DNA of 64,000 nt from Eledone cirrhosa (Eukaryota): the NCBI GenBank assembly GCA_964016885.1, contig OZ024742.1:105834001-105898000 (forward strand), written 5' to 3'. Below are positions 18,054-63,871 of the stretch, piece by piece (the stretch's first letter is position 1; every line of letters begins with the position of its first letter). Below the pieces are notes generated by a model, which saw nothing but the letters and a program-made list of their open reading frames with translations, ran no database searches and was not told the origin of the DNA. The position numbers and the translations under genes are program-made.

Positions 18054-18334
18054 TGCAGAAGTTATATTTAATTTATTGGGATTCCAACAAGCTTAACAGT
18101 TTATAACTGACAGTTTACTGGAGTAAATATTCAATATATTAATAAATGGAAACTATATTTATAAAACCATAATTATTTTATTATATATATTTCAAGGACA
18201 ACCAAGGCAGTCTTGGTGCGCTTTCATCAGATAAAATACAAGATTTGTTTTATAAATATTGACATAACCGTGGAAAAACAACCTTGACAGTTGAAAGTTC
18301 GCTGGATATCCAGCGAACTTTCAACCGTCAAGGT
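18054..18334 (-). mobile_element. HHR fold-back element, family A, copy 1 (single arm ending in a 54-nt palindrome)
   Basis: Homologous to 42350-42773 and 63373-63824. Palindrome ACCTTGAC...GGATATCC...GTCAAGGT at 18281-18334. Flanked by (TA)n and (TG)n. Confidence 0.75.
18174..18238 (-). ncRNA. Minimal type I hammerhead ribozyme (family A)
   Basis: Minus strand reads TATTTTAT-CTGATGA-aagcgcaccaag actgc cttggttgtcctt-GAAA-TATATA-TA^ATAAAATA. Perfect 8-bp stem I, long stem II, palindromic stem III, AUA triplet. Confidence 0.85.
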
Positions 18335-20122: not shown

Positions 20123-21668
20123 TAAATAGAATTTTAGTCTACGACTTCAGTTATACCATAAACGTGGTTTTGTCTTTGCGTGTAATTGTTCACATCGCTC
20201 CACATAATGACCTATTATCTTTGTTTTTTCCGTTCATTGCCAGAGAACGTCTCCATGAACCACCTAATAGAATATTAGTCTACGACTTCATTTATACCAT
20301 AAACGTGGTTTTGTCTTTGCGTGTAATTGTTTTCACCGCTCCAAATAATGACGTTTTATCTTCGTTTTTTTCCGTTCTTTGCCAGGGAACGTTTCCACGA
20401 ACCAAAGTATCGTCTTCCTGTTTTCCTTCGGTTGCAACGTTTTTCGAAATATTTACTTCTGCGTTCACAGATTGATTTTTTTTAGTTTCAGAAGATCCCG
20501 TTAAGGGTGAAAGCAGCGATTCTTTGCTTAAACTTTAATCTGTTATTTTAATAAATATTTGCTCTACGGTTCTTATATATTTGATATATATTTATCCTTA
20601 TTGGGTTTTAGTCTTCAAAATTATTTTATTACTATTTGGCTCCCTCGATTGAGCACTCTATTGACTTATATTCATCATGCAGAAACAACATCTAAATATT
20701 TCTACAAAGAACATACCCATACCAAGCAGGAAAACATACCTAAAACTCCTGATACAGAAAACAGACGCGTTCATTAAAAGGTTGCGTTGGCGTGCCTTTT
20801 ATTTCGATAATCAGGGAAAAGCGGACAACAAACAGGATAAATTTGGGTTTAAAACCTACAATAACCCTCCGAGTAACCCAGCATTGCTACCCTTCGAAAA
20901 TGATGTCTTGGAACTCATACGGAGTATCAAATTTCGGAAAAGGAGCAATTCCTTCCAGCAGGAACTGAAGAATAGAATTCGTTCTATTAAGAATTCTAAT
21001 GCCGTACACGTCCACTCCGACAAAACTGGCAATCTATTTCAAGTGGAGCGCAGTACATACCATCAACTGCTACATAATGCTGTAACTAAGGATTACCGTA
21101 AAACTAATCGGAACTTCATTAATGACAACGATGCTGGGTTTAAAATCACCTCTGATCTCAACATCCTAGACCGGACTGAACCTCTGGACCACACACACAC
21201 TTTACCCTGAAGGATCACAAATCCAATTTCCCGAACAACCCCTCTATTCGGCTTATTAACCCCACGAAGTCTGATTTAGGTAGAGTTACTAAAAGGATTT
21301 TAGATAGAATTATACCTGAAATTAGAAGTTTGGCCCCTCTTGAACTGTTGAACAATTCTTTCGCAGTGATTGATTGGTTCAACGGCATACGCAACAAGGA
21401 ACATTGCCGTTTTATCCAATTCGACATCAATAATTACTACTCCTCCATCACTTTACCACTTCTCTTTAGAGCTATCAATTTCGCTAAAACACTCACGGTG
21501 GTTAAGGATTTCGAAGTTGATGTCATCCTCAATGCCCGTAAGTCGGTGATTAATTTCGACGGCTCTATTTGGATTAAAACATCTAATAATATCCCATTTC
21601 ACTTGAGTATGGGCGCCAGCGATTCTGCGGAGGTTACTGATCTTATCGGCCTTTTCCTTCTTTTTTTT

Positions 21669-32169: not shown

Positions 32170-32250
<81 letters not shown>

Positions 32251-32288
32251 CCCTAATATTAGCCGTAGCGATACATATATATATATCG

Positions 32289-33696
32289 CTACGGCTAATA
32301 TTAGGGATAAGATTTTTAAAAACTATAGGAGGATGGCAAGAGCCTTTATTTATATATTTTAAATTTTCATTAGGTTTATGGTACGATTTATAAGAAGCAG
32401 TAGACAGATCTAGGTTTATATCTAGAAAATTAACATTAGAAAGGTTAGTGTCAATGGTAATTTTAAGATTAAAACTAGCGAAGGTTTTTATTAAGTCTTT
32501 CCTGAATCTATCTATAGTGGTATGGGAAAGTATTAGACCATCGTCGCGATAAAGCCCAAAGGTATGGTTAGGGAATTTCTCTTTAAGTGTGTGTAGGAGG
32601 AATAGGCCGACTAAATCACACACGTCAGCACTGTCAAAAGAACCCATTGAGACATCGAATGGGTTCTCTGGGTTAGATTATTTTACCCAAGTGTCATTAT
32701 TAGTAAATAGTAAAGTGTTTCTAGCATGCAAAATGACATTCTCTTCTATATCAGAAATATTGATAAACTTTCTAGCGAAATTTCAGGCTTTCGTTAAAAG
32801 AAGGTGAGTAATAGACGGGTAGAAGTCTACAATGTCAAATTGGGTGATCTAGAACTATTTTTATCTTTAATATTATTAAACCAATGTACTACGGAAGAGC
32901 TATTTATCCATTGGAGTAATTCAGACTTACTTCTAATATGTTTGTTTATATTATTTAATATTTTTTTGCTAGCAAAACCGATATCAGTCTTAGCAGGGTA
33001 GATTAATCTACAACTAGGACGATTAATAAAATCAGGTTTGTGATCTTTGAGTGTGATATAGGTATTACGTTTAGCAAGTTTTTCTGTTCTATTGTCTATT
33101 TTAAAAAAACTAGCTAATTCTTTAGCTTCCTTATTAATAGTATTATAGGTGTTTATATTAGCTATTTGGTATTTAGAGGTGATGTTATCTGTTAAGAGTT
33201 GGTCATGTAAGTTATTATTAACTTCGTATAAGTTTTTAGTTTTGTCAGAGAAAATGAACTTATTTTTAGAAGATTTGAATATTGAAATATCGTTAGATAG
33301 TTTAGATTGAAAAGGGTTAGAGTACTTACGGAATTTGATTTGGTTGATTAAATTAACTAAGTCTAGTTCAAAAGCGGTCATATCTTTAACTCTTTGCGGG
33401 TATTTATGAGACTTGATATCAAAATATTCTGTAGAGTCCGTGTTAAAGTGTCCATCGAAAATCAAAGCTTTCCATCTCATTCTTTTAACAACTTTCTCTA
33501 CTTTGTCTATCAACATTTTAGTGTAGGAAGTGTTAGAAGGTGTTGGGATATTCTTGATGGAGTAATCCAAATGATGTCTATCCATATTCAGTATTGGTTA
33601 AAAATCCTTTTGAATGAAGAGTGCTCGACTTTAAAGAGATAGAAGATGCCAATCTCATAAAAATGTAGAATATGCTACGATCATTCCCTTGGGAGC
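32289..33696 (-). mobile_element. Naiad-type PLE, 5' half (N-terminus and RT), frameshifted
   Basis: YSIKNIPTPS, KRMRWKA, SDKTKN, TLKDHKPDF, MGSFDSADVCDLVG, GLYRDDGL (catalytic motif), VNFLDINLDL, SCHPPIVFKNL. Confidence 0.9.
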
Positions 33697-34974
33697 AGCC
33701 GTAGGATCTCCACCCTCTCTTCCTCAGAAGCTATTTTCAATAAGGCATCCCCCTACTATAATAAAGCCCTTCAAAATAGCGGATTTAGCGAACCGATTAA
33801 GTACATACCCAACAATACTAACTCCTTTAAACATAATAATAGGAAAAGAAAAATAATCTGCAGTTAAAACTAATGTAGGCAAAACATTCCTAGAGCTCCT
33901 AGATAAACATTTCCCTAGAACACATAGATACTATAAAATCTTCAATAGAAACTGTGTCAAAATCAGCTACTCCTGCGGTCCCCCTATTAATTCTTATATC
34001 CTCAATAAGAAAATGCCCAGAGAACATCAAAATTGCTCCTGTAGAGTCAAAAGTGAATGCCTATTACAAGGTAAATGCAACACCAAAGCCATTGTATATG
34101 CGGCTAAAGTGACAACCACCAGCAACAACCTACCAGCCACCAGCGAACGATATGTGGGTATGACACAAGACAAATTCAAAACGCGTTATTACTCACATGT
34201 CGCATCTTTCCGACATCCTGAAAAAAAATTTACAACAGCTCTGGCTAGCAGAATATGGAATTTGAAATACCAAGGTATCCAATATAAATTAGATTGGTCA
34301 ATTTTGAACCAATCTAAAGAATATGCAAGAGGAACAAGAAGATGCGCACTCTGCATAAGTGAAAAATATTGGATTTTACAGAAACTTAAATCACCAAAAA
34401 CTGCCTAAATGCAAAAACAGAAATTTTCACCAGTTGCCCACGCATGAAATCACACTTGCTTTCCAGCTCACATAAACTTAACTCACTTTCAGATACTTAT
34501 CCTCCATAAAATCTTGTTCTTCACTTTCCTTAAATTACCTTCTTTACAGACTTCTCTTTCTGATTTACTTTTATTTTTATTTTTAACTTTATTTTTACTT
34601 CACATCCACCAGTGAGCCCCCCCCCCCAATGCTTTTTGCTTCACTTACTTTATATCTTCACAATTTTACATATTTTACTTCCTCATTTTCTTTCACTAGC
34701 TGATATCACCTGTCACTTGCGTTTTCAACTCCAGATATATTCTGTTGTCTCTCAGCCGCTTTTATGTATGTTTACTTGCGTATAATTTGTACTCATTTAT
34801 TCATACGGCCGGTTTTTATATTGTATCTATGCGTGTGAGCGTGCATGTGTGTGTATGCGTGTTTGTATAAGTATACAAATGCATTCGTATGTGCGCGTGT
34901 GTGTGTATATGTGTGTGTGTATATGTGTTTTTATATCTATGTTTTTTACATACTTATATATATGTGTGTGTGTG

Positions 34975-36921: not shown

Positions 36922-37264
36922 CGTCTTCCTGTTTAACTTCGGTTGCAAAGTTTCTCGAAAAATTTACTTCTGCGTTCACAGATTAAATATTTTAGTTTCA
37001 GAAGTTAGATGAATGGCGCACAAAGGGTTAATGTTTATTGGCAAGAAGTTTTTTGAATAATAAAAGACAGGTTAAAGCAAGCTACAATGTATATATATAT
37101 GTACAGCCGTACTATGAGTGGGAAATGAAATATCGTTTCATTTTTTCCGTTTATCGTTTTCGGTGCACCCGGCCGATTTACCCACTCGATATGCAAATTG
37201 GGCTACTCAGCCGTTAATATGCATAAGGTAAGTATATACGTTCAACAATCTGGCAGGAAGGTAT

Positions 37265-37307
37265 ACGTTGCTGACGATAGCTAACAAGCTTGAAACTAGT
37301 ACAGCGT
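37265..37307 (+). ncRNA. Minimal type I hammerhead ribozyme, unit 1
   Basis: ACGTTG-CTGACGA-tAGCtaacaaGCTt-GAAA-CTAG-TA^CAGCGT. Stem I ACGTTG/CAGCGT (6 bp including one G-U), stem II AGC/GCT, palindromic ACTAGT stem III, GUA cleavage triplet ending at 37301. Confidence 0.85.
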
Positions 37308-37680
37308 TCCTTTGTCAGTGTTGAACAAACGAGCAACGGTGGTTGCTAGACACTACGGCTTAATACGGGATGTTTGTTTACACCGAGCATTATAACAAAT
37401 GTTCGGTGAATCCATACGTGCATATATATATGTGTGCATCTATGTATATATATATATACATACTACTGTACGTCGGTATACATATATGTATGTACGTGTA
37501 CATACTTATATTTAAGTAACAGCCGTACTAAGAGTGGGAAATGAAATATCGTTTCATTTTTTCCGTTTATCGTTTTCGGTGCACCCGGCCGATTTACCCG
37601 CTCGATATGCAAATTGGGCTACTCAGCCGTTAATATGCATAAGGTAAGTATATACGTTCAACAATCTGGCAGGAAGGTAT

Positions 37681-37723
37681 ACGTTGCTGACGATAGCTAA
37701 CAAGCTTGAAACTAGTACAGCGT
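37681..37723 (+). ncRNA. Minimal type I hammerhead ribozyme, unit 2
   Basis: Identical to 37265-37307. Predicted cleavage after 37717, 416 nt downstream of the first site. Confidence 0.85.
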
Positions 37724-38010
37724 TCCTTTGTCAGTGTTGAACAAACGAGCAACGGTGGTTGCTAGACACTACGGCTTAATACGGGATGTTTGTTTACAAA
37801 CACACCGAGCATTATAATAAATGTTCGGTGAATCGATACGTGCATATATATATGTGTGCATCTATGTATATATATATATACATACTACTGTACGTCGGTA
37901 TACATATATGTATGTACGTGTACATACTTATATTTAAGTAACAGCCGTACTAAGAGTGGGAAATGAAATATCGTTTCATTTTTTCCGTTTATATATATAT
38001 ATATATATAT

Positions 38011-38421
<411 letters not shown>

Positions 38422-42285: not shown

Positions 42286-42349
<64 letters not shown>

Positions 42350-42391
42350 ATGATATTAAATAAATGGAAACTATATTTATAAAACCATATT

Positions 42392-42456
42392 TATTTTATT
42401 ATATATATTTCAAGGGCAACCAAGACACCATTGGTGCGCTTTCATCAGATAAAATA
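42392..42456 (-). ncRNA. Minimal type I hammerhead ribozyme (family A)
   Basis: Minus strand reads TATTTTAT-CTGATGA-aagcgcaccaatggtgtcttggttgccctt-GAAA-TATATA-TA^ATAAAATA. Confidence 0.8.
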
Positions 42457-42573
42457 CAAAGTTTGTTTTATGAATAGAGACGTTGGAAATTCACTGGATA
42501 GTCTATCCGGGGAATTTCCAACCGATAAGGTATGATTTTCATGGGTACGTCTCTATTTATAAAACAAACTTTG

Positions 42574-42638
42574 TATTTTATCTGATGAAAGCGCACCTAT
42601 GGTGTCTTGGTTGCTCTTGAAATATATATAATTAAATA
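42574..42638 (+). ncRNA. Minimal type I hammerhead ribozyme (family A)
   Basis: TATTTTAT-CTGATGA(42582)-aagcgcacc...ggttgctctt-GAAA(42619)-TATATA-TA^ATTAAATA. One mismatch in stem I. Confidence 0.75.
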
Positions 42639-42797
42639 AATATGGTTTTATAAATATAGTTTCCATTTATTTAATATCATTGAATATTTACTCCAGTAAG
42701 TTGTTGAGTGCTCTAAATCAGTTATAAACATTTATGTTTGTCGGACTTCCAACAAATTAAATACAACTTCTACACACACACACACACGCACACACAT

Positions 42798-63295: not shown

Positions 63296-63373
<78 letters not shown>

Positions 63374-63412
63374 GATATTAACAAATGGAAACTATATTTA
63401 TAAAACCATATT

Positions 63413-63477
63413 TATTTTATTATACATATTTCAAGGATACCATGTTAAATTACGGTATGCCTTCATCAGACAAAATA
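63413..63477 (-). ncRNA. Minimal type I hammerhead ribozyme (family A)
   Basis: Minus strand reads TATTTTGT-CTGATGA-aggcataccgt aatttaac atggtatcctt-GAAA-TATGTA-TA^ATAAAATA. Confidence 0.8.
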
Positions 63478-63628
63478 CAATATATACCAGTTTTATAAAT
63501 AAACATTGACGTTACCCTTTCAAAATGCAACCGTTACTTTTGGAAGACATCAGGATAGTCTTCCAAAAGTAACGGTTGCATTTTGAAAGGGTAACGTCAA
63601 TGTTTATTTATAAAACTGGTATATATTG

Positions 63629-63693
63629 TATTTTGTCTGATGAAGGCATACCATAATTTAACATGGTATCCTTGAAATATGTCTAATAAAATA
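63629..63693 (+). ncRNA. Minimal type I hammerhead ribozyme (family A)
   Basis: TATTTTGT-CTGATGA(63637)-aggcataccat...atggtatcctt-GAAA(63674)-TATGTC-TA^ATAAAATA. Stem III carries a substitution. Confidence 0.7.
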
Positions 63694-63820
63694 AATATGG
63701 TTTTATAAATATAGTTTCCATTTGTTAATATCGTATATATACTCCAAATATTTGTCGAGTGCTTTATATCAGTTATAAAAATATTTGCTTGTTGTATCCC
63801 AACAATTTAAATAGAACTTT

Positions 63821-63871
<51 letters not shown>

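Follow-up and report, generated by a model that had tools for sequence, protein, structure and literature searches.

Within the 64,000-nucleotide stretch of Eledone cirrhosa DNA analysed here (contig OZ024742.1, positions 105,834,001 to 105,898,000; hereafter the window), three sequences beginning at 18054, 42350 and 63373 (copies 1, 2 and 3, respectively) match one another at 72-79% identity by BLAST. When aligned, they share the hammerhead ribozyme (HHR) core, stem I and a downstream block, and vary in stem II. The family's HHR cores in the window (CUGAUGA..GAAA) begin at -18230, -42448, +42582, -63469 and +63637, the sign denoting the strand. The locus therefore stands as the initial annotation had it in these respects: three copies with type I hammerhead cores and a shared end, two of which (copies 2 and 3) fold back to place an HHR on the opposite strand, copy 1 having a single HHR.

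Copy 3 is flanked by (TA)n target sequence on the left (63341..63372) and on the right (63825..63868), and is built of two arms matching the terminal repeat (pLTR) of L100, an element described below. The first (63373..63559, minus strand) runs from an inferred +1 at 63559 to what we term the short end at 63373, and is 89% identical to the L100 pLTR over 187 nt. The second (63558..63824, plus strand) runs from ~+12 to what we term the tail end, and is 91% identical over 263 nt to the 3' pLTR of L100. Each arm bears a type I hammerhead motif, at 63413..63477 on the minus strand (C3 at 63469, cleavage predicted after 63421) and at 63629..63693 on the plus strand (C3 at 63637, with one substitution in stem III). 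The arms meet head to head at 63558..63560 in a 3-nt microhomology, which includes an extra base at -1 (63560) that may be cap-templated. The whole of 63373..63824 had been annotated as a palindrome; this holds for 63365-63741, with arms of 184 bp each (63365-63548 and 63558-63741), and fails for the tail (63734-63824, plus strand), which opens with a TA run, lies unpaired outside the palindrome in one arm only, and occupies the interval between two inferred RT start sites (~83-90 nt). Folded as RNA, copy 3 reaches -290.5 kcal/mol (z = -41.8).

Copy 2 is an imperfect fold-back, its left arm being internally deleted: the short-end arm (42348..42502, minus strand) extends to +1 and has lost ~+21..+47, and the tail-end arm (42503..42772, plus strand) starts from +2. 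Its hammerhead motifs lie at 42392..42456 (minus strand, C3 at 42448) and 42574..42638 (plus strand, C3 at 42582). In copy 1, a tail-end arm starting from +3 (18054..18308, minus strand; motif at 18174..18238, minus strand, C3 at 18230) is joined to an inverted-arm stub of only ~26 nt (18307..18334, plus strand), which has no second HHR, through a zero-spacer palindromic junction. All copies had been said to abut (TA)n, but the tail end of copy 2 adjoins (CA)n first and (TA)n only beyond. Similarly, the GGATA placed at a hairpin pivot is indeed present at inverted junctions near that site, being the TATCC of the element read in antisense; the element encodes no such hairpin, and none was seen when L100, the parent, was inspected.

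We assessed the hammerhead itself in 22 representatives chosen from the commonest of 154 distinct motifs, which have the core, an NUH site and stems I-III, with 99.4% of 352 cells paired. Three pairs of stem II showed double changes, and the covariation score was reached by none of 500 shuffles, a score that reflects about three subfamilies, and hence few independent events, with inner stem II left unscored as its register shifts. These data support selection on the RNA structure, which had been proposed on seeing that stem II differs between copies yet pairs. Strong activity of the HHR as a monomer appears doubtful: the 10.1-11.1 pair is A-U in 22/22 sequences rather than G10.1-C11.1, stem III has only 2 bp, single-arm folds are non-significant (z = -0.9 to +0.4) with the full fold recovered in 0/5, and no HHR family was found among the Rfam matches listed (150 of 292 in the window), nor on the right arm of copy 3 at E<=10. 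In loop III the sequence forms a palindrome, or comes close to one, and a related family carries a different, full palindrome at this place, as expected for cleavage as a dimer. In read-through RNA of either strand the antisense arm is made first, and the predicted hairpin (-290 kcal/mol) would bury the HHR, so that the proposed self-cleavage whichever strand is transcribed is unlikely; long dsRNA would be the predicted product if the palindromes are transcribed.

Other hammerheads were encountered along the way. The related family just mentioned (L042:2265-2346, L084 and L101) is distinguished by its longer stem II and by GC within its palindromic loop III. A second minimal-HHR family with a short stem II occurs in the window at -18461, -16979 and -28232, the first of these right behind copy 1, and probably represents pLTR stubs of another Penelope-like element (PLE). 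A 416-bp unit is present twice in tandem at 37160-37992; both units contain a type I HHR, with cores at +37271 and +37687, whose loop III is palindromic, and the pair, which ends at (TA)n, resembles a non-LTR retrozyme dimer. Another perfect inverted repeat, with a (TA)n core, is found at 38103-38218; one of its arms recurs beside (TA)n in several loci, and it probably belongs to a different repeat family.

The family is genome-wide, with at least 408 to at least 2644 candidates per family query, of which 40 per query were scored. Among the 30 loci of the first family search, some run upstream into a common pyrimidine-rich stretch, and a query with this stretch retrieved copies that share up to 1.9 kb and reach the C-terminus of an endonuclease (EN) on the same strand. 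ORFs encoding RT and EN were found within 12 longer stretches that we fetched. One, in the 5'-truncated L099, is stop-free over 699 aa. L100, whose ends are complete, comprises in order an inverted 5'-truncated copy, a partial pLTR with tail, ~50 nt, the ATG, the ORF (with one frameshift), a 1.6-kb 3' UTR, a pLTR with HHR, the tail and (TA)n, and measures 4.15 kb from the ATG to the end of the tail.

Several features identify this element as a PLE. [quoted passage not shown] The pLTR of L100 is truncated and followed by a tail ahead of the ATG and is full at the 3' end, giving the partial tandem of PLEs. The inverted 5'-truncated copy with a tail at one end, and the HHR motif lying within the pLTR in sense to the ORF, are PLE traits as well. 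The ORF motifs (DKT, RWR rather than RWK, a CxCX5C linker, CxxC..E and N..CxH) follow the pattern of the Hydra clade, as does the (TA)n insertion preference. The Neptune clade was also considered as parent and dropped for Hydra after this motif test, since a pattern search of the ORF found the Hydra motifs and no CX2-5CxxC linker finger. At 4.15 kb the element exceeds the length usual for the Hydra clade (<3 kb), which is a described tendency and no strict criterion.

Compared with the L100 pLTR, to which the arms of copy 3 are 91% and 89% identical, copies 2 and 1 are more distant (77% and 72%, respectively). The tail-end arm of copy 2, assigned to subfamily B, matches at 95-96% identity the pLTRs that follow Hydra EN ends in L175-L178; among the 7 loci fetched, 4 have such a pLTR 0.8-1.9 kb downstream of a similar EN end, and one more is ambiguous. 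The corresponding arm of copy 1, assigned to subfamily C, is 87% identical to a pLTR located downstream of the 3' part of a same-orientation Hydra ORF in 1/2 loci (L180). No full-length parent was found for subfamilies B and C among the loci fetched (7 B, 2 C). Copy 3 is evidently a clipped 3' pLTR stub of a Hydra-clade PLE, as the suggested link to PLE inverted terminal repeats and the recommended search for an attached PLE ORF had anticipated, and copies 1 and 2 evidently represent sister subfamilies that also lead upstream to Hydra ORF ends. Insertion lengths grade continuously from ~100 nt up to full length, and the palindromes evidently are extreme truncations of one Hydra PLE family with at least three subfamilies. 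Thus, the element is a new family of a known clade and not an independent new element, and the idea of an undescribed non-autonomous element gives way to fragments of PLE terminal repeats, an outcome that the initial annotation had itself named as one that would overturn it.

The searches also returned relatives and neighbours of this family. L094:1-3133 and L097 (minus strand) represent a fourth Hydra subfamily, with an ORF ~81% identical, a different 3' UTR and a pLTR that retains the Inr-like motif. Other Hydra-like ORF remnants, 28-47% identical to the L099 protein, lie in the window at 20887-21662 (plus strand), 32249-33372 (minus strand) and 33863-34375 (plus strand). Loci L044-L047 (G000:C2, ~338.32-338.46 Mb) are four near-identical copies ~44 kb apart, probably a tandem segmental duplication, and at ~1960-2190 of L026 a fold-back of an unrelated HHR-bearing sequence is fused directly to the 3' UTR of the Hydra family.

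We next turn to the ends of the arms, as seen in top-scoring, and hence young and similar, copies. Arms terminate at either of two fixed 3' positions, tail and short, which are 83 nt apart and are each followed in the full element by a short TA run. A (TA)4+ tract adjoins 88/95 tail ends and 51/57 short ends, against a background of 9%. An adjacent inverted arm was present in 58/89 loci (one duplicate dropped), and these pairs nearly always combined unlike ends, with 51 tail+short, 1 tail+tail and 6 other (p = 2e-8 against an expectation of 1/3 tail+tail), in sets drawn with queries that select tail-bearing arms, where short+short pairs are invisible; a further tail+tail pair, L021, was scored as one-armed in this count. 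When 12 long insertions were collected with an upstream query, ignoring the 3' end, 9 had opposite ends, 1 was short+short and 2 had no inverted arm. In 5 of the 9 opposite-end insertions the long arm was the one without the tail, and the short arm carried it.

Among 31 subfamily B/C pairs, the short-end arm extended at least 5 nt further 5' in 13, the tail arm extended further in 14, and the two were approximately equal in 4. Since 30 of the 31 pairs have distinct junction coordinates, a count in which reuse of a few microhomology sites may leave the cases not fully independent, the palindrome was not amplified as a unit.

At their 5' side, the arms meet a wall. Of the 96 subfamily B/C arms, 25 begin at -3..+3 of a conserved Inr-like site; 8 reach beyond it in the 5' direction, and the remaining 63 begin on its 3' side. 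The base at -1 in the 29 arms starting at +1 was G in 18, A in 5, C in 3 and T in 3, compared with C in 49/51 arms that continue upstream of +1. G accordingly makes up 18/26 of the non-C bases at this position (p = 3e-6 if 0.25 is expected; the nulls measured were 0.11-0.20 across the A, AC and any-base classes), and in a smaller set with a lower score cut it was found in 15/27. Most of these extra Gs could alternatively belong to the partner arm, which does not hold for about four (L105, L122, L123 and L154). Reverse transcription of a cap leaves an extra G, so an extra G at the +1 wall is as expected for run-off on capped RNA. The transcription start at +1 and the cap are thus putative features, deduced from DNA. 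No comparable pile-up of 5' ends was seen at the HHR cleavage site, as 0/30 direct arms of subfamily B, obtained with tail-only queries, start within 3 nt of +130.

Taken together, these observations suggest that the palindromes are pLTR stubs of a Hydra-clade PLE, at the short extreme of an unbroken range of 5'-truncated insertions with inverted arms, and that they probably arise when both ends of a (TA)n break each prime reverse transcription. We consider this reading likely, and weighed it against three others.

The first keeps the same Hydra pLTR origin and derives the inverted arm by snap-back: the cDNA would fold near its 3' end, copy itself and join the far end of the target at an internal TA run. 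Such a route would suit the near-perfect identity of the two arms of copy 3, whose pivot can be drawn as a 9-nt loop closed by a 3-bp stem, and the rare alleles common to both arms in 10/37 loci; the same 37 loci also contain 36 family-polymorphic positions at which the arms disagree, as could result from two RNAs or recurrent mutation no less than from one RNA. Its geometry is also compatible with 18/31 pairs (the 14 with a longer tail arm and the 4 about equal), which fit either route. In copy 3, however, snap-back fails because the short-end arm alone has +1..+11 and the other arm alone has the tail, and the same mutual absence of sequence is found in 13/31 short pairs and in 5/9 long insertions. 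Moreover, a zero-spacer palindromic junction like that of copy 1 is impossible by simple fold-back, and the short end is also used by direct arms without a tail. Since arms hold sequence missing from their partners, snap-back is refuted as the sole route, and we regard it as an unlikely general explanation; the version put forward in the initial annotation, in which cDNA self-primes at the GGATA hairpin, can produce neither copy 3 nor 13/31 other pairs.

A second alternative is that the short palindromes constitute a distinct non-autonomous, retrozyme-like element that, once transcribed, cleaves itself and is returned to the genome as a whole by the Hydra protein. The high copy number of the short forms and the HHR covariation would agree with this, as would the derivation of animal retrozymes from PLE pLTRs (bioRxiv 10.64898/2026.07.22.740005). 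The near-uniqueness of the junction coordinates speaks against it, together with the graded lengths, the lack of arm starts at the cleavage site, the absence of tandem monomers and the predicted hairpin, which would mask both HHRs; we find it very unlikely.

The third would have the palindromes form after insertion, by recombination or deletion between neighbouring inverted copies or by gene conversion, or be assembly artefacts. Nested insertions are in fact dense in the same (TA)n tracts, and among the raw reads of two runs and the contigs examined none covers the whole of copy 3, but random deletion would hardly yield the strict pairing of tail and short ends or the +1 wall, the form is present at many loci on many contigs, and raw reads of both runs cross from left to right arm at other pivots (e.g., 63429>63709, with 8 and 28 reads from 3 starts each), making this the most improbable of the three. 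The short end followed by (TA)n was likewise recovered in 5318 and 6007 raw reads of the two runs, which are RAD reads, so that depth is not a copy number.

Priming from each side of a (TA)n break appears, then, to be the simplest single model, and its steps can be envisaged as follows. Pol II would start at +1 inside the upstream pLTR and yield a capped RNA. The EN would cut both strands of (TA)n, and each 3' end would anneal to one or the other UA run of the RNA, both primings probably taking place on one RNA molecule with each site used once. A single RNA would explain both the near-exclusive pairing of unlike ends and the rare alleles common to both arms. Where priming falls in the 5' pLTR, run-off would give a pair of short cDNAs measuring at most ~185 and ~275 nt, and where it falls in the 3' pLTR the arms would be long and extend into the ORF. 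Microhomology of 0-6 nt would then join both cDNAs at their 3' ends, so that inverted repeats stand head to head and each strand has an HHR. The HHR itself would be carried along with the pLTR; it is predicted to require dimerisation or help from a protein and to be masked in RNA that reads through the palindrome.

More tentatively, and with a little less than even confidence, we propose that the inverted ends and one-sided tails of PLEs are the footprint of symmetric twin priming, in which a dimeric RT-EN would use both ends of a (TA)n double-strand cut at two fixed UA sites on one capped RNA, with run-off at the cap producing thousands of back-to-back promoter-plus-ribozyme palindromes. Were this so, such palindromes could serve genome-wide to drive divergent transcription or to supply dsRNA for editing and RNAi. 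The family offers thousands of short, young junctions and a near-intact ORF, making the model testable through three countable signatures: two start sites used exclusively, an extra G at a 5' wall, and arms neither of which copies the other. Of note, palindromes of this kind are prone to misannotation as MITEs or microRNA hairpins. We found no account of twin priming for PLE inverted ends in the literature searched, the older key papers lying outside that search.

In L1 twin priming, one RNA is primed from two target ends, the products are joined through microhomology, and non-overlapping parts of the element become inverted. Unlike in L1, the primings deduced here lie 83 nt apart and copy the same region, and the outcome is a duplication. 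A closer biochemical parallel is Poseidon PAc, for which in vitro TPRT cuts and extends both target strands, two internal RT start sites bound the tail, and HHR cleavage is not needed (Frangieh et al. 2024; PMC11167929). The model proposed here fits this behaviour. PAc differs in that it starts at RNA sites non-homologous to the cut DNA, whereas both sites here carry a TA run matching the target, and in that its HHR overlaps the start of the ORF, whereas the ORF here begins ~50 nt past the tail (PMC11167929).

Among PLEs, the family conforms to the Hydra clade of C-terminal EN+ elements as described by Craig et al. (2021; PMC8557442) in its DKT, RW(K/R) and CxCX5C motifs, CxxC and CxH around E and N, the lack of a CX2-5CxxC finger, a type I HHR near the 3' end and (TA)n targets. 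It departs from the description given there in its length (4.2 kb with a 1.6-kb 3' UTR, against generally <3 kb), its clear pLTR and its ~83-nt tail, against a PLE-typical 30-40 bp. The same source lists Hydra-1_Obim of Octopus bimaculoides at 2507 bp with 'no pLTR' and a different HHR, and by eye it looks like a different family. PMC8557442 also describes inverted 5'-truncated copies, one-sided tails and (TA)n targeting in PLEs, and names the origin of their tandem and inverted repeats as an open problem.

The Penelope of D. virilis, the Adineta Penelopes and Naiads (PMC8557442, PMC3846280, PMC2377424) share the head-to-head inverted pLTR, the one-end tail, microhomology junctions, an Inr-like TCACT in the pLTR and solo pLTRs. 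An internal promoter has been described (PMC2377424), and for rotifer Penelopes palindromic inverted junctions and the Inr-like TCACT were reported in 2013 together with a proposal of self-priming on an antisense template (PMC3846280). Relative to what these sources describe, most insertions here lose the whole ORF, such that the arms meet as a palindrome of 350-470 bp, and the junctions speak against self-priming being the sole route. In Schistosoma mansoni, dual min-HHRs on opposite strands, 100-700 bp apart, were attributed by Cervera and de la Pena (2014; PMC4209133) to truncated PLEs. These have the same arrangement, a long helix II and a palindromic helix III; they belong to another PLE clade, and a highly conserved G-C is reported there, versus A10.1-U11.1 here. 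Non-LTR retrozymes, which have been described as PLE derivatives (bioRxiv 10.64898/2026.07.22.740005), are likewise non-coding, with a type I HHR and a PLE pLTR origin, but they are head-to-tail tandems, and the arms here stand head to head with unique junctions. Published descriptions of PLEs already cover inverted 5' copies, the one-sided tail, (TA)n targets and pairs of HHRs on opposite strands; the element itself is ordinary in kind, and its value lies in the mechanism that its junctions suggest.
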